From Eledone cirrhosa (taxonomy: Eukaryota), in contig CAXHJY010000814.1 in NCBI GenBank assembly GCA_964016885.1, positions 1-64,000 on the forward strand: DNA of 64,000 nucleotides, given 5' to 3'. The notes under the pieces are model-generated. The model searched no databases. It saw only the letters and a program-made list of their open reading frames with translations, and was not told the DNA's origin. Shown in pieces: positions 17,245-40,644 of the stretch. Made by a program: the position numbers and the translations under genes. Position 1 is the first letter of the stretch, and every line of letters begins with the position of its first letter.

Positions 17245-18740
17245 ATTTTATTAACAACGATGTACAAAGTAAATAAAGTTTAATAGGAAAAGAAAAGAAA
17301 AATTTAGATTGAGATGACTGGAATGTAAAATAGGTAAATATAGAGAAAGGAGAGAATAAAAGAGAGAAAACGAGATGAGGAGGGGAATGACAAGGACTGT
17401 AGTGTCACAGAAGACTGAGGGGAGGGTGGTTGAGTTCTGGGCCTAGGGCATAGGGGTGGAGAGGCTGTGACCCATGGACAATAGCCTGCGACACCTGCTG
17501 CAACAGTCACCCAACCTCGCCGGGCTCCTTCCTCAGACGGGGCACCAATGTTCTGATCTTGCAGAGGAGGTCGACAGTACGGGGTCCAAATAAGCCTGAG
17601 GTCGACAGTATAGGGTCCAAGTAAGCTTGAGGTCGACTGTACGGGGCCCAAATAAGCCTGAAGTCGACAGTACGGGGCCCAAATAAGCCTGAAGTCGACA
17701 GTATAGGGTCCAAATAAGCCTGAAGTCGACAGTACAGGGCCCAAATAAGCCTGAAGTCGACAGTACAGGGCCCAAATAAGCCTGAAGTCGACAGTACAGG
17801 GCCCAAATAAGCCTGAAGTCGACAGTACAGGGTCCAAATAAGCCTGAAGTCGACAGTACGGGGCCCAAATAAGCCTGAAGTCGACAGTACGGGGCCCAAA
17901 TAAGCCTGAAGTCGACAGTACAGGGCCCAAATAAGCCTGAGGTCGACAGTACAGGGTCCAAATAAGCCTGAAGTCGACAGTACGGGGCCCAAATAAGCCT
18001 GAAGTCGACAGTACGGGGCCCAAATAAGCCTGAAGTCGACAGTACGGGGCCCAAATAAGCCTGAGGTCGACAGTACGGGGCCCAAATAAGCCTGAAGTAA
18101 ACAGCACGGGGCCCAAATAAGGCTGAGGTCAACTGTATGGGGTCCAAATAAGCCTGAGGTCGACAGTACGGGGCCCAAATAAGGCTGAGGTCGACAGCAC
18201 GGGGCCCAAATAAGGCTGAGGTCGACTGTATGGGGTCCAAATAAGCCTGAGGTCGACAGTACGGGGCCCAAATAAGGCTGAGGTCGACAGTACAGGGTCC
18301 AAATAAGCCTGAAGTCGACAGTACGGGGCCCAAATAAGCCTGAAGTCGACAGTACGGGGCCCAAATAAGCCTGAAGTCGACAGTACGGGGTCCAAATAAG
18401 CCTGAAGTCAACAGTACGGGGCCCAAATAAGCCTGAAGTCGACAGTACGGGGTCCAAATAAGCCTGAAGTCGACAGTACGGGGCCCAAATAAGCCTGAAG
18501 TCGACAGTACGGGGCCCAAATAAGCCTGAGGTCTCAACGGCGATTGGTGTGAAATGGAAGCGGCCAGACAGTCCCCTGGTATTTGTTGATTTTCTGTTCT
18601 TGGGCGAGGTGCATCGTGAACTGGGGGTTTAGGTTAGGGTTAGACCGAAGGGACTAAGCTGGAGGCGGAAACATGTGGCACAGAACCAATCTCTGGATCT
18701 CACTGAATTACTTGCTAATGGATTACATTGAGTTCTAGCT
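17245..18740 (-). mobile_element. CRE-like non-LTR retrotransposon 3' fragment with an internal 31-bp array
   Basis: With the array collapsed it reads approx. EQKINKYQGLSGRFHFTPIAVETSGLFGPRTVDLLCKI..LRKEPGEVG*LLQQVSQAIVHG (RLE C-terminus). Confidence 0.75.
17567..18533. repeat. 31-bp minisatellite, 31 copies
   Basis: Unit GAGGTCGACAGTACGGGGCCCAAATAAGCCT; 961 bp between first and last GAGGTC = 31 x 31. Confidence 0.98.
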
Positions 18741-24914: not shown

Positions 24915-26862
24915 TAGCTGTCGAGATACTGCATCCTTTAAAACCTCCATGGAACAAACTACCTGCATCAGTTGTTAGCTGTCGAGACACTGCATCCTTT
25001 AAAACCTCCATGGAACAAACTACCTGCATCAGTTGTTAGCTGTCGAGACACTGCATCCTTTAAAACCTCCATGGTACAAAATACCTCCATCAGTTGTTAG
25101 CTGTCGAGACACTGCATCCTTTAAAACCTCCATGGAACAAACTACCTACAACAGTTGTTAGCTGTCGAGACACTGCATCCTTTAAAACCTCCATCAGTTG
25201 TTAGCTGTCGAGACACTGCATCCTTTAAAACCTCCATGGAACAAACTACCTGCATCAGTTGTTAGCTGTCGAGACACTGCATCCTTTAAAACCTCCATGG
25301 AACAAACTACCTGCATCAGTTGTTAGCTGTCGAGACACTGCAACCTTTAAAACCTCCATGGAACAAACTAGCTGCATCAGTTAGCTGTCGAGACACTGCA
25401 TCCTTTAAAATCTCCATGAAACAAACTACCTGCATCAGTTGTTAGCTGTCGAGACACTGCATCCTTTAAAACCTCCATGGAACAAACTACCTGCATCAGT
25501 TGTTAGCTGTCGAGACACTGCATCCTTTAAAACCTCCATGGAACAAACTAGCTGCATCAGTTGTTAGCTGTCGAAACACTGCATCCTTTAAAACCTCCAT
25601 GGAACAAACTACCTGCATCAGTTGTTAGCTGTTGAGACACTGCATCCTTTAAAACCTCCATGGAACAAACTAGCTGCATCAGTTGTTAGCTGTCGAAACA
25701 CTGCATCCTTTAAAACCTCCATGGAACAAACTACCTGCATCAGTTGTTAGCTGTCGAGACACTGCAACCTTTAAAACCTCCATGGAACAAACTAGCTGCA
25801 TCAGTTAGCTGTCGAGACACTGCATCCTTTAAAATCTCCATGGTACAAACTACCTGCATCAGTTGTTAGCTGTCGAGACACTGCATCCTTTAAAACCTCC
25901 ATGGAACAAACTACCTGCATCAGTTGTTAGCTGTCGAGACACTGCAACCTTTAAAACCTCCATGGAACAAACTAGCTGCATCAGTTAGCTGTCGAGACAC
26001 TGCATCCTTTAAAATCTCCATGGTACAAACTACCTGCATCAGTTGTTAGCTGTCGAGACACTGCATCCTTTAAAACCTCCATGGAACAAACTACCTGCAT
26101 CAGTTGTTAGCTGTCGAGACACTGCAACCTTTAAAACCTCCATGGAACAAACTAGCTGCATCAGTTAGCTGTCGAGACACTGCATCCTTTAAAATCTCCA
26201 TGGTACAAACTACCTGCATCAGTTGTTAGCTGTCGAGACACTGCATCCTTTAAAACCTCCATGGAACAAACTCCCTGCATCAGTTGTTAGCTGTCGAGAC
26301 ACTGCATCCTTTATAACCTCCATGAAACAAACTACCTGCATCAGTTGTTAGCTGTCGAGACACTGCATCCTTTAAAACCTCCATGGAACAAACTACCTGC
26401 ATCAGTTGTTAGCTGTCGAGACACTGCAGCCTTTAAAACCTCCATGGAACAAACTCCCTACATCAGTTGTTAGCTGTCGAGACACTGCAGCCTTTAAAAC
26501 CTCCATGGAACAAACTCCCTACATCAGTTGTTAGCTGTCGAGACACTGCAGCCTTTAAAACCTCCATGGAACAAACTCCCTACATCAGTTGTTAGCTGTC
26601 GAGACACTGCAGCCTTTAAAACCTCCATGGAACAAACTCCCTGCATCAGTTGTTAGCTGTCGAGACACTGCAGCCTTTAAAACCTCCATGCTTCCTGAAA
26701 TTCGCCAACACTATACCTGATATTCCCCCCTCCATACACACCCACGTATACACTTTTCACTTTCCTGACATTTGTACATTATTCTATGTACTATACATGC
26801 ACCTTTGATGGGTTGTAGTGCACCTGAGCACTGTACACAATAATTTCATTATTATTATTATT
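24915..26862 (+). mobile_element. CR1-like LINE 3' end with ~29-copy 61-bp array (24915-26690), 3'UTR and (ATT)n tail; extra 3'UTR copy at 24459-24560
   Basis: Reverse complement of the unit and UTR at 1016-1755. Confidence 0.9.
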
Positions 26863-29145: not shown

Positions 29146-29195
29146 AGTGACGTCACTTCCGCCTAAATATGGAGGCGCCAAATCTTTCCCAGTCT
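29146..29195 (+). promoter_or_regulatory. Compact promoter-like element: CRE palindrome, ETS-like site, TAAATA, CAGT initiator
   Basis: AGTGACGTCACT (29146-29157) overlapping ACTTCCG, TAAATA 29164, CAGT 29190, ATCATCATG at 29231. Confidence 0.45.
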
Positions 29196-29230: not shown

Positions 29231-29871
29231 ATGAATCCTTCAACCAGCAACAACAGCAACTCAGGTCATCACTTCCAACCTGCCAAGACTGACCAATTGG
29301 TTAACTTTCCCACGTTAAATTATTTTTTTAATGTAATTAAGTAAGAAAGATATTAACATTGAATAAATAATTGATTATTGATAAATAGTTGATTATTACG
29401 AGTAATACCAAATTCAACATAAATGCACCATCATCGGAAAGAATGGCATTTATAACTCGGTATACCGAGTTTCTCTTCAACACACAATCACCATTCCTGA
29501 AATATGTGAGAATATATGGAATACATTGTTCTACCAAGACTTTTTTAATAACCTTGTTGACAATGGATTTCACTCAGATGAGGAATATCTTGCTATTATT
29601 ACAGACGACTATAATAGAAAATGTGCCGAAAAACAGTCCAACGAAGCAAATAAAAACCAACAACATCGATTTGGGACTCCGTCTCCAGCTAGATGTGGGT
29701 CAACACTGGTGTTGTCTCCAGCTAGATGTGGGTCAACACTGGCGTTGTCTCCAGCTAGATGTGGGTCAACACTGCTGTTGTCTCCACCAGAGTCAGACAA
29801 CTCCAATAAAGAGAACCGAGGAATCAATGATGCAGTCTCGTACTGATGCACCTCCGCCAGATCCTTTATAA
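29231..29871 (+). pseudogene. Orphan coding relic with two overlapping open frames and an in-frame 33-bp x3 repeat (29681-29786)
   Basis: Overlapping ORFs 29389-29871 and ~29406-29846; shares S.[DE]EYLA.I.D[DE]Y with the satellite monomer. Confidence 0.45.
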
Positions 29872-31034: not shown

Positions 31035-31272
31035 TTAGGAGCTGGGGGATCCAACATGTAGAAGACCACAAACATGTTTGCCTAGAGGCTAAATGCTTTA
31101 AATTCCTCCATCTCCCTCCCTCCCAGCTTGTCTCCCTTCACCAAAAGGACGGTGCATTGTGCAAAACTCTTATCAAATTAGGAGTATGATATTACATTTT
31201 ACGCACAGTCAGCCAGAAATATATTTAACATATGGTTAGATGTGGGGGAATGTAACCCAATTCAAATAAATA

Positions 31273-31368
31273 GGCGGGAAGATAATGTTGATGGGTCCAA
31301 ACATGTAAGGCGCGAAAAAAATGCTGACAAGTCAGAACATGTTTCAGAGAGAAAAAAGAATATAAATA
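31273..31368 (+). promoter_or_regulatory. Putative viral early promoter: two E2F-like sites plus TATA box
   Basis: GGCGGGAA 31273-31280, GGCGCGAAAA 31309-31318, TATAAATA 31361-31368, upstream of the NS1 relic. Confidence 0.5.
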
Positions 31369-31934
31369 GATGGCATCTCTGCAGCTGCAGCGCAGGCTGA
31401 CAGAGGAACATTGAGGGAACGGCGTTACCCCATTTGACACAAGACTTCCACACACACAACAGACCATAAGCTACGAAGGCCTAAAGAAAAGAGATGCGGA
31501 GATGCTGGCAGAGTTGTCGGTAAGTCATGCCATTACATTTACCATTTTATAACTAGAGTGGACCATACACGACTGACGTTACTAAGAAGCCTATTAATTT
31601 GGACGAGTGTTGCAGAGAACGGGACATTGATTACGGTAGAAATGACATATCAATAGAAGACGCAGACGAAAAACTCATCAAGTGTGCAGATAACGTCGAA
31701 GGGGTGGCATCGTTCATAGTGAAGTCAGCCATAAAACTGAAAGAACTGATGCCACCTGCATCAACAACCACAAGAGACAACTTCAATTACAATGTTTTGT
31801 GCGACGGTGCCAAGTAGGCACTTACACGGAGTAATCCCTAAAGGGAAGAGGCATGGTAGAACTATGCACATAACAAAGGACAGTCACGGGGCAGAAATAC
31901 TTAAACACACCACTGGCTGGTTTGTTAACAAGTA

Positions 31935-33922
31935 ATGCCATTGTCAATGGTCGATAAGCACTATAAAAAGCAAACATCCACGCCAGACTGTCAAAGCTAC
32001 AAGCAGCAGCAAGCCAAGATTCAATTCAACAACGCAGTTTTCCACGACGAAACAAACACTGAAAACCAGATAGGCTACACATGGGTACACCAATTCGAAC
32101 ACCCAAAGGAAATAACTTGGGATGAAGCTCCCAGAATCAACACACCAGCCAACACTCTTGTCCATGTCGAAGAGGGCAGGAAAAATTACCTTATGAAGGT
32201 AATCTACAAACAGCCTTCCATTCTAATATTCCACAAAGCAGCATACAGCTAAATGAAACACTGCCATGATATTCCGCATTTCCACATAATATCGTGGCAC
32301 AAAGACCATCCATCAAACATACACTCTTTCCAAATGTTAAAAAGCCTAACAAAAAACAAAGGTACAAACCCATATCAACTTACAGTGCAGAAAATATTTA
32401 ACCTGTACGGGTTTTGCCAATACCTGACACAGAATGATGTAAGATGGGTTGTCGCAGCGAACAAAATAGACACCAAAAGCCAAAAACTCATGCTCAAACA
32501 ACTAACAAAGACTAGCGAAGAATCAGACGATGACAAGAACAAAACACTACACACAAACAAAACAGTCCGAGGAGCCAAGTACAATTTCATTAAAAAAATG
32601 ATGAAAAGATGTAACTTCACGGACATGGGCGATATCATGTGTTTGGTATTTCAGCAAAGTGAAATACCAAACACAGTGGGATAATATATCAAAATACCCC
32701 CAACTTATTAAACATCATACAAGCTGCAGTGACAAAGACGAACATCGAAACAAAGGCAACCCGTATATGGGAACAAATACAATAAAAAAACTGAATACTT
32801 TACAACTATGACAAATACATACCATGACGTACAAACATTAGACATATAGTATATGTCTAATGTTTGTAAATATAGTATATATCTAATGGTATATGTCATA
32901 TACCATGAATGGATAGATCACAACTTTAATCATGACGACTTCAACCACCACACATTTGAAGTATGTCATAAAATCAACCCAAAGATTAATGGACTACACA
33001 TCACAGGGCCATCAAACAGCGGAAAGATCAATCCGCAACGGCCTTATGAATTGCGGCTGAATGCAATGCCAAGCATCGAACAACTTCACCTTTGGCAGTT
33101 GTATAGACAAAACCCTCATATACACAGATGAAATGTGGTTCTCCGCTAACAACATCTTGGAGGCAAAGTGCATCTTAGAAGGCACCGCCACATACATAAA
33201 CATCAAACACCAAATCATCATCATTTTACATCCAGAATTCTCAATTGTTGTGTTCATAGTGTTTGGCAGTAGTATTTATACTGGTTGGATGCCCTTCCTA
33301 ACACCAACACCAAAATGAACGAATATTAATACGGACACCGTCTCTGTCAACCATTAATGTGGGCCCTTGGAATGTCGTGCTCCACGAAATAGACGGTTTG
33401 AAAAACCGGCTTTTTTACTATGAGACAAGACGTCACATGCCGAAATTAAAAGACTGGGGCCGCATTGACCTAAACCCCGTCATGTGGCTAACGATATGGA
33501 AGCCATCCATAGACAAATATGTCCAAAATGCATATAACGAAACATACCTAACATCAAGATCCAAGCCAAACAAAAGATACAGAGTTAATGAAAAAGATAT
33601 TCTTTCACCAAACAGGAAACAACAAATAGTAGAAGTAAGACACAACATAGAAAAATAATTAGAAACACCAGCAACATCTAAAATGACAGCATTCACACCA
33701 ACAAAAATGACTACGCCATGCGAAATGGACCTAGAACTAGCACAGGCGTGCGTCATACACGATGCAGATATGAGTGGCTGCAGCTTTCAAAGAACAAAAG
33801 AAGAATGGAGCCCCTTACTAATCACACCAACGTTGTGACTATCACACAAACATAAAAATTACTTCCTATGATTAAGAGCTAGAGAATATACACCAACACC
33901 CTTCAAGAGATTTTCACTTTAA
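31935..33922 (+). pseudogene. NS1: Endogenous parvovirus/densovirus-like NS1 (HUH endonuclease + SF3 helicase) pseudogene
   Basis: LIFH...HDIPHFHII (HUH), FCQYLTQ (catalytic Tyr), GLHITGPSNSGK (Walker A, 33006-33026), NNFTFGSCIDKTLIYTDE (Walker B), EAKCILEG...KH (B'), RTPSLSTIN (motif C), LKNRLF (Arg finger); stops and frameshifts; AATAAA at ~34020. Confidence 0.9.
33215..33314 (-). mobile_element. 100-bp SINE-tail insertion into NS1 with 9-bp target-site duplication
   Basis: AACACCAAA at 33206-33214 and 33306-33314; insert has (CAT)n and TGGATGCCCTTCCTAACACC as in the SINE 3' end. Confidence 0.85.
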
Positions 33923-34180
33923 CAGCAAATATTTCGAAGATTTATATAAACAAGATGCTGATCAATTTTTTTACTTATTTCTGTAACTTTAAAATATTTT
34001 ATTCTCTTCGCTGTCGCTTAATAAAAGAATTGAACTTAAATCTTGCCTTTGTTATCTTTTACATTAATATATATATGTATGTATGTATGTATGTAAAAGG
34101 TAAACAGAAATAACAACACAATCAGTACTGTATATATATATATATATATATAATGTAGGACGTGAGTTTTATTGTAGAAC

Positions 34181-35684
34181 AATGAGGCATTTAATGATAC
34201 AATCATATTTTATTTTAAATAACTCATGAAGAAAAATCATATTTTTATCACGCAAAAGTTTTACAACACATTTTATATTTATCGCTTTTTTTCAAGAAAA
34301 TTCTTAAATTTTCAGATTTAAAATTCAGTAGAATGTTCTCGATTAGGTTTAAGGTAACTTCTAAGGACTATTAAAAACATTACGTCATTATTTGTCTGAC
34401 GACCATCCTGTAAACATTGATAACCGTCCTGTAAACATTGACAATATGGGGAAAAATAAACTGATTGATCAAGACCTCTGTAAACGCATTGTAGACCTTC
34501 ATACAAATGTTGGTTATAGAAAGATATCTTGTCAGTTAAATGTGCCATTGAGTTCAGTTGGTACTATAATTCGTCACTGGAAATCTCATCATTCCATCTG
34601 TCCTCTAATTAGTTCTGGTCGTCCGAGAAAGATAACGGAACGTGCAGCTCGGTTATTGACGAGAAACGTTGGCAGCAACGAACCCCGGTGTACTCTTAAA
34701 AATCTTCAGGATGACCTAGAAGGAAGTGGAGTAAAAGTGAGCACAGATACAATTAGTCGCTCACTTCGTCGATATGATATCTTCTCGAGGTCTCCAAGGA
34801 AAACACCACTTCTTACGAGGAAACACGTTCTTCCTCGATTAAACTTTGCAAATGAACATCTCATCAAACCTGCATCGTTTTGGGAAGATGTACTTTAGTC
34901 GGACGAAAGAAAATTTGAACTTTTTGGTCGAAATGCTGTGGCAAAAGTCTGGAGAAAGAAAGGTACTGAATATTCGCCAAAGAATACTATTCCAACTGTA
35001 AAATTTGGAGGTGGATCAATCATGGTCTGGGGTTGCTTTAGTGCCACAGGTGTAGGAAATATTGAAATACTAGAAGGAAGAATGGAGGTATTTATTATAG
35101 AGGTATTTTGCAAAGGAATTTACATCAAAGTGTACATTCTCTCAGCTTAAAGCCAGGTTGGTTTTTTTCAACAAGATAACGATCCAAAGCATACTGCAAA
35201 GCTAACACAATCTTGGTTAAGTACGAATGGAATAAATGTTCTAAAATGGCCAAGTCAGTCTCCAGATATTAACCCGATCAAAAAATTTGTGGAGAGAACT
35301 GAAACTCAGAATTCAAAAAAGGAAACCCCAAAATATCCCTGAACTAAAGAAAATTTGTTGTGAAGAATAAAAATATTAGCCAAGAAACATGCAAGAAGTT
35401 TGTAGGAGGCTACTCCAAACGCCTACAGGCTGTAATTAGCAACAAAGGTTACGCTACGAAATATTAAGAGATGATTTAATAAATGTGTTGTAAACTTTTG
35501 CGTTATAAAAATATTGATTTTTCTTCACGAGTTATTTCCTTGTTATTTTTTTTTAAATATGATTGTATCATTAAATACCTCATTATAAGTTCTATCAGCA
35601 GTTAAATTTTCATTACCCTAACTTTATTAAAAATTCCTAAAACCACATTTTTCCTAATATGTTGTAAACTTTTGTGGGGCACTG
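34181..35684 (+). mobile_element. Tc1-family (DD34E, IR/DR-type) transposon; outer part of left TIR missing; transposase pseudogene 34446-35467
   Basis: [44 protein letters not shown](K) with 34-residue spacing; right TIR ends CACTG-TA and contains two TGTTGTAAACTTTTG direct repeats. Confidence 0.95.
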
Positions 35685-35721
35685 TATATATACATGAATA
35701 TACGTATATATATACACATAT

Positions 35722-35770
35722 CTGATGAGAATGCAAATATCGGATGATATTTGTTTTTGAAATGCGCATA
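35722..35770 (+). ncRNA. Minimal Penelope-type hammerhead-like motif
   Basis: CTGATGA-G, stem II CAAATATC-GGAT-GATATTTG, GAAA, palindromic stem III ATGCGCAT-A; stem I not evident. Confidence 0.55.
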
Positions 35771-35954
35771 ATAAAATACATGGAACTTTTTTAACCATCT
35801 TTATATTTCTTCTTATATACTCCAGTCCAATAAACTGTTGAGTGCTACTTATCCGATATTTGCATTGCTTTATTGTTCTACAATAAAACTCACCTCCTAC
35901 ATTATATATATATATACATACATATACTGTACCGATTGTGTTGTTATTTCTGTG

Positions 35955-36561
<607 letters not shown>

Positions 36562-37649: not shown

Positions 37650-40644
37650 ACTTTGAAAACTAAGCAACACATCAATTTATACAACAACAAACATAGCGTT
37701 ACTCTCTCCGTCACTCTTCCCTCTCTCTACAATAGATTATTCCCCCCTCTCTATAATTTAACTGCTTTACTCTCTTCATGCTTCGAGGTTTAACACACCT
37801 CCTTATGGTTTCTTAGCTTCACTCTCTCCATCGCTCTTCCCTCTCTCTATAATAGATCTTTCCCCCCTCTTCGTTCAGAAACGCGAAAAAAACTTTGATA
37901 ATTAAGCAACACATAAATTTATACAACAGACAGTCATAACGATGCTCATACATCAAATAACAAAACTTAAAAAGCCGATAACACTACTCATTTGGCTGAT
38001 AACAAAAATCAACGAAAGCAGCACTGACAGCATCATTTCAGCAGAAATACCCAACCCAAAATTGGACAGAGAACTCCACAACATCGTCACTGTTCACATG
38101 GTTCATGGGCCATGCGGGAATGGTTTCAATATGAATTCGCCATGAATTAAAGAAAGAAAGTCCACCAAGAGGTATCCTAGGCCATTCCTCCAAGAAACTC
38201 AGACGGGTGGCGTCAGTTATCCATTATACCGCTGCAGGAAGCCAACGGACAGAGGAATTGTTGTGATAACACCACATCACCACGTCGACAAGCGGTGCAT
38301 TGTACCCTACTGCCCACTTCTGCTTAAAATGTTTAACGCCCACATTAACGTTGAATACTGCCACTCCGTCAAATCAATAAAGTATGTCTGCAAGTTCATC
38401 AATAAGGGGTCCGATGCTGCGTCCTTCGGTCTTACAATGCAGAACAGCCGATACATCAGCAGTAATGAAACGTTCTCACAATTCTTACACTTTACAATAT
38501 ACCATAACTACCCCCCAATCAAACAGTTGGCGGTGCACCTTGAAAACGGTCAAAGAGTCTACTTCACCGCTGCTGAGATAGCAAAGGAACCCAAGGACAC
38601 CACACTTACGGCATTTAAGTTATTCCAAAACGATCCCTTCGCCAAGACCCTCTTCTACTTTCAGGTGCCATCATACTACACATGGAACACAGACAACAGA
38701 ATTTGGTTTAGAAGGGTGAAAGGACAACCCGTTGACGGACATCCAGACATTAAAATGTCCCCAACCCTTGGGAGAGTGTACACCATTAATACCAACAGGA
38801 ATGCTTTTAATCTCCGCCTTCTACTGCATGAGGTGGTAGGACCAACATCTTTCGACGATCTGAAAACAATCAACGGAGAGACTTGTACTTCATTCCGCGC
38901 AGCCTGCCTTAGATGGGGTCTACTGGAAGATGGCACTCAGTGGGATGCGACATTGGCGGAGGCAGCTACAACACGCTCAGTGCGAACTCTTCGGCAACTC
39001 TTTGCGGTGCTACTGCAGACATGCGAGTTAAGCGACCCTGTATCCTAATGGGACAAATACAAAGAGGACCTTTCCGATGACAACATACACCAAGGACAAC
39101 TGCTACTCCCTCATTCCGACGTACGACTCAGCGACGAATTCTTCAACAAAGATCTCATTGACATCGAGGACAAAATCCTAACTGCCGGCGGAAATCACCT
39201 TCCATTCTATGGACTGCCAAAAGTTCAGCGAACGGGCTCAGAGAAACTTCCGAAGCGCATAATTCAGGAAACTGCCTACAACATCGATGCCCTCAAACTG
39301 TTCATCAACGAAAACGAGCCGAAATTGTTGCAGGACCAACAGCGGGCGCGACAGCAAAAAGGAATCGCCCGGGCTGTGGCGGCTTCTGGGATTGCTGCAA
39401 CTCTGCTGCCCGGAGGGAGGACAGCTCATTTCGCATTTAAACTACCATTCAACACGACTTCAGACGACACAATAACCTGCAACATCATCAAGGACTCTGA
39501 CAAAGCGGAAGTCTTGATTGTGTGGGACGAATGCACAATGGCCCATAAAGGATCCCTTGAGGCGTTAGACAGGACCCTACGAGACATCAGGGAATGCAAC
39601 CGGCCGATGGGAGGAGTACCTCTACTGCTGTCTGGCAATTTTCGACAAACTCTTCCAGTTGTTCCAAAAGCCACCAGGGCCGACACTGTGGGGGCTTGCA
39701 TTAAATCATCTCCCCTGTGGCAGGAAGTGACAACTTGACCCTCACAACAAACATGAGAGCCCAACTGCTCGGCGACCGCTCATCAGCAGACTTCTCAAAG
39801 GTCCTCTTAAAAGTTGGTGACAGCACTGCACCTTCAGATGCAGCTGGAGAAATGGCAGTCTCGCAAGTAAGCACTGTTGTCGACACTCTTGACGACCTCA
39901 CAGCCTCTGTCTTTCCCGATATGGCCATCAACTACAAAAACACGAGTCGTTTGTGTGATAGAGCCATATTGGCTCCCAAAAATGTCTCCGTTGCAAAAAT
40001 CAATGAGGACCTTCTGCAATGCATTCCTGGAAACCTCCGTACCTACAAATCTGTTGACAAAGATGAGGTTGACGATTTTCCAACAGAATTCCTCAATTTC
40101 TTGGACCTCTCTGGACTGCCACCTCATTAACTGCGCGTCAAAGTTGGGTCTCCAGTGATGCTGTTGAGGAACCTGGAACCACCACGTCTCTGCAACGGAA
40201 CACGGTTAGTGGCAAGAAACCTCCTGCCGCATGTAATTGAAGCCACAATTCTCACGGGCTGCGGCACTGGGGAAAACGTCTTCATACCCAGAATACCATT
40301 AACTCCATCAGGTATGGAATGCCCCTGTACTCTGCGCCGACTTCAATTCCCCGTTAAACTTTGCTTCGCGGTGTCAATCAACAAGTCTCAAGGCCAAACG
40401 CTATAAACAGCATGCCTACATTTAGCCCAGCCGTGCTTCTCACATGGCCAATTATATGCCGCATGCTCAAGACTTATTCATACTTGCGCCCAAAGGCAGA
40501 ACAAAAAATGTGGTCTACATAGAGGTGTTGTGACTCCTCTATTCAGCACCACTACAGTCTTGCCGGTCTGACATATGGTGAGTAGATGCTATTGTTGTAC
40601 TTTAAAGCAATTAAACTCCGAGCAATGGCGGGCACTTCTGCTAG
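37650..40644 (+). mobile_element. Helitron (5' end not defined) with Rep/Pif1 helicase pseudogene ~37970-40533 and canonical 3' end
   Basis: ISAEIP..HMVHGPCG, VPY.PLL.K.FNAHINVE.C.SVKSIKY, SGIAATLLPGGRTAH, IVWDECTM, FRQTLPVV, MLLRNL..LCNGTRL, QFP..INKSQGQTL, FSHGQLY; 3' CCGAGCAATGGCGG hairpin then CTAG|T at 40641-40645. Confidence 0.96.

Follow-up and report, generated by a model that had tools for sequence, protein, structure and literature searches.

A broken parvovirus-type element in the Eledone cirrhosa genome carries a phospholipase A2 reading frame upstream of NS1

The window analyzed here is a stretch of 64,000 nucleotides from the cephalopod Eledone cirrhosa (positions 1 to 64,000 of contig CAXHJY010000814.1, assembly GCA_964016885.1). 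Between 31.2 and 34.05 kb, on the plus strand and set among host repeats, it contains a broken element that is, with very little doubt, a dead endogenous parvovirus-type element, and that encodes no intact product today. A damaged open reading frame (ORF) for a phospholipase A2 (PLA2) domain is followed by a damaged NS1 gene and a short AT-rich tail, and the whole has been joined to host DNA and has decayed. The order of PLA2 before NS1 is very probably native. Our preferred reading, to which we give a probability of about 0.45, is that the element derives from a cephalopod parvovirus in which the structural gene came first and NS1 last, and that the capsid body was deleted from this copy. In the parent virus, the structural gene would then likely have stood ahead of the replication gene, an order opposite to that of textbook parvoviruses.

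The NS1 motifs lie in order on the plus strand, spread over three frames. By motif reading, HFHII (HUH motif II, 32277-32291) and CQYL (HUH motif III, 32415-32426) are followed by the superfamily 3 (SF3) helicase motifs GPSNSGK (33006-33026), LIYTDE (33115-33132), EAKCILEG (33160-33183) and RTP..T.N (33332-33358). The long 5' frame, used as query in a word search, returned four relatives, including the intact 514-residue protein P0002, and a tblastn comparison of P0002 with the window gave three colinear pieces that are 41%, 76% and 61% identical (Expect 1e-122). Taken piece by piece, the window accounts for the greater part of residues 24-475 of P0002. In the window, the Pfam Parvo_NS1 cut-off is passed by the piece 33061-33315 alone, and P0002 matches the same family with E=1.8e-18. 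Because of the colinear match and this profile score, the motif series is not a chance arrangement, and the best profile matches fall within the SF3 viral helicases. The best sequence matches of P0002 in the PDB are AAV Rep and B19V NS1, and its best Atlas clusters are NS1, with a score of 0.97.

The nuclease (HUH) region spans 32000..32640, with 34-52% identity to P0002 residues 24-216, and the N-termini of the relatives P0015 and P0030 align from 32004-32025. The helical linker and SF3 helicase occupy 32641..33550 in several frames, and a C-terminal tail with a Cys/Cys/His/Cys motif extends over 33551..33838, ending in a terminal stop at 33836-33838. This tail is 42% identical to P0009 over 33 residues, and the Cys/Cys/His/Cys pattern recurs in 8 of 40 proteins from the close clade, a set in which truncated sequences are numerous. 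HUH motifs II and III are conserved across the clade. The predicted structure of P0002 (pLDDT 88) matches AAV2 Rep68 over both domains, sharing with it and with B19V NS1 the succession of HUH domain, helical bundle and SF3 helicase (Foldseek 1e-17 over 521 columns; for the helicase, VIA Z 22.5, rmsd 3.9 and 258 aligned residues), although identity is only about 15-22% and those viruses have a rep-then-cap gene order. Searched against BFVD, the P0002 model matches unclassified Parvoviridae from bird samples first and then ichthama- and chaphamaparvoviruses. When the N-terminal domain of the relative P0003 was modeled in isolation, HUH nucleases ranked first with a weak Z of 5-6 (RepB Z 5.7, AAV5 Rep Z 5.1), and its best BFVD matches were parvoviral NS1 (E about 2e-5).

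The protein joins a Parvo_NS1-type SF3 helicase to an N-terminal HUH nuclease, whose fold match is weak when the domain is taken in isolation. That combination bears on a bidnavirus-type helicase gene, which would also be of SF3 type and would come from segmented viruses, but bidnavirus helicases lack the N-terminal HUH domain that is present here (PMC4061559). No bidnavirus stands among the best 50 BFVD rows, which falls short of an exclusion, and no protein-primed PolB match was found among the ORFs scanned, which were part of the window ORFs. We regard a bidnavirus origin as very improbable; the assignment to Parvoviridae rests on the predicted NS1 and PLA2 products together.

Stops interrupt NS1 at 32250, 33058 and 33656, and the frame changes near 32640-32684, 32783 and 33027. 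Two short inverted duplications, at about 32638-32675 and 32830-32870, form perfect-looking hairpins and suggest template switching. The helicase is further split at 33215..33314 by a fragment of a high-copy host repeat (summed contig depth about 10^4), flanked by a 9-bp target-site duplication. In the helicase tree the terminal branch of the window is 0.19-0.23, compared with 0.05-0.08 for P0002, which fits decay after insertion.

Contig sets from three runs (X1-X3) tie this decayed sequence to the host. In all three sets a contig covering 31004-31546 passes from a long interspersed nuclear element (LINE) endonuclease remnant, recognized by Pfam, into the element. A single 1752-nt contig, for which X1 and X2 show 0-1 differences, covers 31523-33274 and so takes in both PLA2 and NS1; contigs cross the 33215-33314 insert at both of its sides. 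The right end, at 34055, adjoins a microsatellite and a Tc1 element, and that junction is unbridged by contigs. Contamination or misassembly of an exogenous virus could draw on this unbridged junction and on the origin of the three runs in one sample, which is possibly the assembly's own source; the bridged left junction, the host repeat with its target-site duplication inside the helicase and the many stops and frame changes make it scarcely credible. The runs are stronger evidence against misassembly than for fixation in the species, and a RAD-seq run (X4) with almost no reads over the unique part of the element was uninformative. Summed contig depth rises above that of the rest of the element at 31372-31605 and at 32776-33243, where related pieces elsewhere in the genome may contribute.

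An earlier sequence-only reading had placed an endogenous parvovirus-like NS1 unit at 31270..34030, with the same ordered HUH and SF3 motifs and an insert at 33215-33314. The colinear NS1 match, the host junctions and the decay bear it out, and the insert is a real, high-copy repeat. The same reading took the unit for a single transcription unit; a promoter, NS1 and an AATAAA are present, but there are two genes and two TATA boxes rather than one.

The first gene had been listed only as a decayed ORF at 31599-31817. It is indeed decayed, but its true start is the ATG at 31527 and its identity as a PLA2 domain had been missed. The ORF (31527..31817, 96 codons, broken by a stop at 31554) matches Phospholip_A2_4 with E=4.6e-6 and 27.3 bits, against a cut-off of 23.9. 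Its only PDB sequence match is a parvovirus VP1 N-terminus (9cuz, E=0.026), and the likeness to parvovirus VP1 extends about 10 residues beyond the PLA2 core. The catalytic His-Asp pair is not intact. In Parvovirinae and Densovirinae a PLA2 domain forms the N-terminus of the capsid protein VP1; here a domain of this VP1u type is present, yet its ORF is closed after 96 codons and no capsid sequence follows.

Upstream of this ORF lies a predicted promoter region (P1, 31270..31370) with E2F cores at 31274 and 31310 (two of the seven in the window) and TATAAA at 31361. The E2F/TATA promoter of the sequence-only reading is thus present as a set of sites whose activity is a prediction, and the arrangement of the E2F pair with the TATA box occurred in 0 of 2000 shuffles, in a test defined after the sites had been seen. 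Four ACATGT palindromes, of 34 in the window, lie at 31054-31342 in the same region. Short ATG-led leader frames (31494..31525) end at a GTAAGT at 31520, one of eight in the window, which lies 7 nt before the PLA2 start and from which splicing may have taken place. A second TATA box (31962..31968), a predicted promoter, stands about 35-40 nt before the point where the NS1 of relatives begins; the window has no ATG at that point. The PLA2 stop is 145 nt ahead of this TATA box, and less than 200 nt separate it from NS1.

Two unrelated viral insertions lying side by side in a hotspot would account for the pairing of PLA2 and NS1 by chance. A second, different NS1 scrap about 1.4 kb upstream indicates that the region does collect viral DNA, and a word search found no relative of the PLA2 ORF among proteins of 52-168 residues, a search that left longer, fused forms aside. 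However, the two genes share a strand, the spacing of promoter, ORF, TATA box and ORF is orderly, no host repeat intervenes and strand composition is continuous, with an AT skew of 0.17-0.47 throughout 31.2-33.8 kb, the insert excepted. Chance adjacency is therefore an unlikely explanation.

The NS1 of the element belongs to a clade that is tied to cephalopods. A phmmer scan with P0002 returned 984 proteins at E<=0.001, with mostly fragments of 40-78% identity leading the list. A profile search gave at least 39 clusters at E<=1e-20, of which 37 come from Logan contigs only and 2 come from the annotation of Acanthosepion pharaonis, where their contigs measure 849 kb and 1.5 Mb; this search was word-limited and does not bound the size of the family. 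Among 48 close proteins, just 3 retain the HUH, Walker A and Walker C motifs together, which is what one would anticipate if many are endogenous copies or lie on short contigs. In scans of viral contigs and of metagenome contigs the close clade had no match, and P0040, P0034, alignment A7 and the capsid of a virus genome discussed below (L001) likewise had none in viral contigs.

Our trees were quick and built without classified references, one with 110 rows after 19 listed cluster duplicates and short matches had been dropped, another without P0206, P0207 and most of the distant matches. On one side of a branch with SH-aLRT 92 stand 40 close rows, with the window and both cuttlefish proteins; SF3 identity is 39-99% inside this clade and 19-40% to the 30 other rows. 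In the tree of full-length proteins, support for the clade is 100 and its stem is 1.38 long, but no firm position for it emerges. The best phmmer matches outside the clade are 29-32% identical, and the best named structural matches at most 29%; the genus criterion, as quoted, is 35-40% NS1 identity over 80% of the length (PMC11357303). NS1 belongs to a tight, deeply divergent clade of about 40 proteins from a likely unclassified virus lineage, for which the distances would suit subfamily rank. The poorly sampled mollusc-associated lineage that the sequence-only reading had envisaged finds its counterpart in this clade with its two Acanthosepion pharaonis proteins.

Cephalopod parvovirus sequences are not new in themselves, because expressed sequence tag (EST) fragments of the clade were listed in 2016. 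That study lists parvovirus-related sequences from Euprymna, Sepia and Octopus, and places the mollusc ones outside the known genera (PMC5013282). Among the entries of Francois et al. 2016 are the Euprymna ESTs DW277466, DW283133 and DW277051, the Euprymna transcriptome shotgun assembly entry GBHH01003248 and the Sepia EST FO193416 (PMC5013282). By eye these fragments carry the clade helicase motifs, and the Euprymna assembly row is almost letter for letter P0009, but they are 0.6-0.8-kb helicase pieces that give no gene order, nuclease domain or link to PLA2. The available text of PMC11071296 contains no cephalopod terms, and the available parts of the reviews name no parvovirus for cephalopods. 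No description of the gene order of the clade was found in the literature searched; figures, supplements or GenBank records could hold one.

The closest full genomes come from the group of P0020, P0023 and P0028, the best phmmer matches outside the clade. Two loci of this group were fetched, and 2 of 279 pattern matches were confirmed: L001 (JACSEC010000037.1, 432-3954) and L002 (1-3328), both unclassified parvovirus-like genomes in which the capsid gene precedes NS1. The two loci share one layout on one strand: a leader exon, GTAAGT, the capsid gene, an acceptor, NS1 and the end of the genome. The capsids are 438 and 445 residues long and match the PmMDV capsid (E=5e-8), with IHHNV_capsid below its cut-off. 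GTAAGT lies 25-38 nt before the capsid ATG, the acceptor 14-17 nt after the capsid stop, and the phases match, from which the capsid gene is predicted to lie inside an NS1 intron. L001 ends in a 72-nt hairpin containing AATAAA. We found no description of such capsid-first parvoviruses in the literature searched, which left most subscription papers outside it.

Scored with the clade nuclease profile, the L001/L002 group reaches 46-51 bits, whereas a 90%-cluster mate of P0028 gets no more than 31 and the rest of 77 full-length proteins no more than 24. By helicase and nuclease score together, L001 and L002 are the full genomes most similar to the element. They also share with it a GTAAGT before the first gene, NS1 as the last gene and a short AT-rich tail, and the skeleton of the window, consisting of promoter, donor, structural-type first gene, NS1 and tail, resembles theirs. 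The frame from the ATG at 31494 reaches the donor in phase 2, like exon 1 of L001, a coincidence with a chance of 1 in 3. They differ from the element in having a full capsid, no PLA2 motif, an NS1 split by a capsid-bearing intron and an SF3 identity to it of only about 34%.

We infer from this layout that the structural slot came first in the parent virus and that its capsid was deleted here; loss from the upstream slot is somewhat favored over a capsid carried elsewhere. In keeping with this reading, NS1 is kept as far as its natural C-terminal motif, and the tail beyond it is non-coding. By analogy with the family, the E2F (cell-cycle) promoter would have driven the first, structural slot of the parent virus, and the PLA2 head would have aided exit of the particle from the endosome. 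NS1 would have been made from the second promoter, or by splicing from the donor at 31520, and would have nicked the termini through its HUH domain and unwound DNA through its SF3 domain for rolling-hairpin replication. DNA, and not mRNA, would then have entered the germ line, with loss of the termini followed by decay. DNA is indicated because the promoter and sequence beyond the AATAAA are kept and there is no poly-A tail; for the same reasons an mRNA retrocopy was rejected.

Several observations weigh against a deleted capsid-first genome. In the trees the clade and the capsid-first group do not come together, and a forced union is neither supported nor rejected (p-AU 0.148). Neither L001 nor L002 has a PLA2 motif, and their capsid type is described as lacking PLA2 (PMC11357303). 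No intron divides the N-terminus of the window NS1 as it does in L001 and L002, and a search for a good phase-2 acceptor came up empty. Neither a capsid remnant nor a deletion junction was found, and the PLA2 ORF closes in a clean stop ahead of the second TATA box. The layout of PLA2 and NS1 is known from one copy only, seen in the single sample behind X1-X3.

In the AT-rich 3' tail (33839..34055, plus strand), the 217 nt past the end of NS1 contain neither a long ORF, on one strand or the other, nor a significant hairpin. The AATAAA signal noted in the sequence-only reading is present at 34020, but a hexamer is expected by chance in 31% of shuffles of the tail; a minus-strand poly-A signal was rejected, with the hexamer at chance level (49%). 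Neither end of the element folds better than shuffles (z +0.9 and +1.1), and termini or a flanking duplication around the element were not found. In endogenous copies such hairpin ends have commonly disappeared or degenerated. No capsid gene was found when 24 window ORFs were compared with Pfam and 13 further ORFs were examined, and the L001 and L002 capsids had no match in the window; a partial endogenous copy cannot show that the virus lacked a capsid.

A capsid gene could instead have lain to the right of NS1, in a megaparvovirus-like or ambisense arrangement, and have been lost at or after integration, for example on arrival of the Tc1 element, which begins about 50 nt past the last unique base. 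Megaparvoviruses (the SwaBA-MePV-1 lineage) do have a separate, 5'-most PLA2 ORF upstream of NS1, as well as endogenous host copies (Verhoeven 2026, PMC13426907), and in ambisense densoviruses a small ORF before NS1 is spliced out and NS1 terminates at a poly-A site in the center of the genome (PMC3820778). Compared by description only, however, megaparvoviruses have 6.4-kb genomes, a second large ORF before NS1, a capsid (VP) gene after it and beetle hosts; the window shares the PLA2 upstream of NS1 and has neither the second large ORF nor the VP. The string 'octop' does not occur in the available text of that paper. In the viruses that serve as models VP follows or abuts NS1, and tapeworm endogenous copies keep VP downstream of NS1 (PMC6880638), whereas here the tail has no long ORF, its minus-strand hexamer is at chance and no capsid match was found beyond the Tc1 element. 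We consider a capsid on the right doubtful.

Less probable than a deleted capsid-first genome, but the strongest of its competitors, is that nothing is missing from the unit, whose size of about 2.6-2.7 kb would be its natural one. It would be one segment of a bipartite parvovirus, or else a satellite or mobile element that has no capsid gene, and its PLA2 would be non-structural and stand-alone. The lineage, of subfamily level and carried by squid, cuttlefish and octopus, would on this tentative account have descended from parvoviruses with the capsid gene in first place, within the NS1 intron, and would have kept only PLA2 and NS1 on a replicating molecule of about 2.6 kb, a segment of a bipartite virus or a capsid-less element that invaded cephalopod germ lines repeatedly. 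The clean stop after 96 codons, followed by a TATA box and then NS1, would suit it. So would the contigs of 2543 nt (shared by the variants P0002 and P0006) and 2363 nt (P0178) that carry intact NS1 proteins, close to the unit size in the window, and the Logan data, in which none of the 37 clusters has a contig longer than 3746 nt while the longest contigs of 8 of 10 clusters farther away measure 3.8-4.4 kb. Stand-alone PLA2 genes have precedents in Acheta domesticus segmented densovirus (AdSDV; Penzes 2023, PMC10267136), whose NS molecule lacks a capsid gene, and in the megaparvoviruses. The PLA2 of AdSDV, however, sits on the capsid segment, downstream of VP, and not on the NS segment (PMC10267136). 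Endogenous copies are expected to yield short contigs, because short-read assembly breaks off at repeats; the missing termini and flanking duplication count against a complete unit, as does an Octopus vulgaris transcript with a VP match, to capsid or to PLA2 only, in the supplement of PMC5013282.

Endogenous parvovirus pieces are common and cephalopod fragments have been known since 2016, so the find alone is modest. Its value lies in a near-complete anatomy, from which the gene order of a deeply divergent, cephalopod-linked clade can be read. It would add a case of PLA2 apart from the capsid to those of AdSDV and the megaparvoviruses, bearing on gain, movement and loss of the entry enzyme, and it points to parvovirus genomes with a predicted capsid gene inside an NS1 intron. 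The intact relatives can serve as probes for a living virus in cephalopod samples.

The second NS1 scrap (29389..29846, plus strand) preserves the Walker C and arginine-finger end of a different parvovirus-like lineage. It matches P0100 with 42% identity over 38 residues (tblastn E=7e-4; blastp E=1e-4), and by eye its motif is nearly that of O. bimaculoides KOF81493 in the supplement of PMC5013282. It has no Pfam match, an SF3 profile E of 1.8 and Atlas scores all under 0.8, and a 33-bp tandem repeat lies within it at 29681-29786. Together with the main element, the scrap brings the viral insertions in this 2-kb neighborhood to two. Between 28260 and 29345 the DNA is non-repetitive, with a CRE site at 29148 (one of two in the window), an Ets-like site at 29156 and short ORFs without a Pfam match, and is possibly more viral DNA.

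Elsewhere the window is rich in repeats, whose octopus-like types, like the cuttlefish relatives of NS1 and the O. bimaculoides likeness of the scrap, point to a cephalopod host. The Tc1-type transposon (34095-35960) is decayed and high-copy and has long terminal inverted repeats, and a decayed Helitron-like Rep/PIF1 helicase gene lies at 37900-40400 (PIF1 E=1.8e-36). From 40750 to 64000 a tandem array of about 14 copies of a ~1636-bp unit (95-99.6% identity, strong C-over-G skew) runs past the window end. One 61-bp satellite forms two arrays in opposite orientation, at 1203-1755 and 24915-26690, and a 31-bp satellite occupies 17570-18533. The sole Rfam or ARAGORN match is tRNA-like and lies at 36394-36451.

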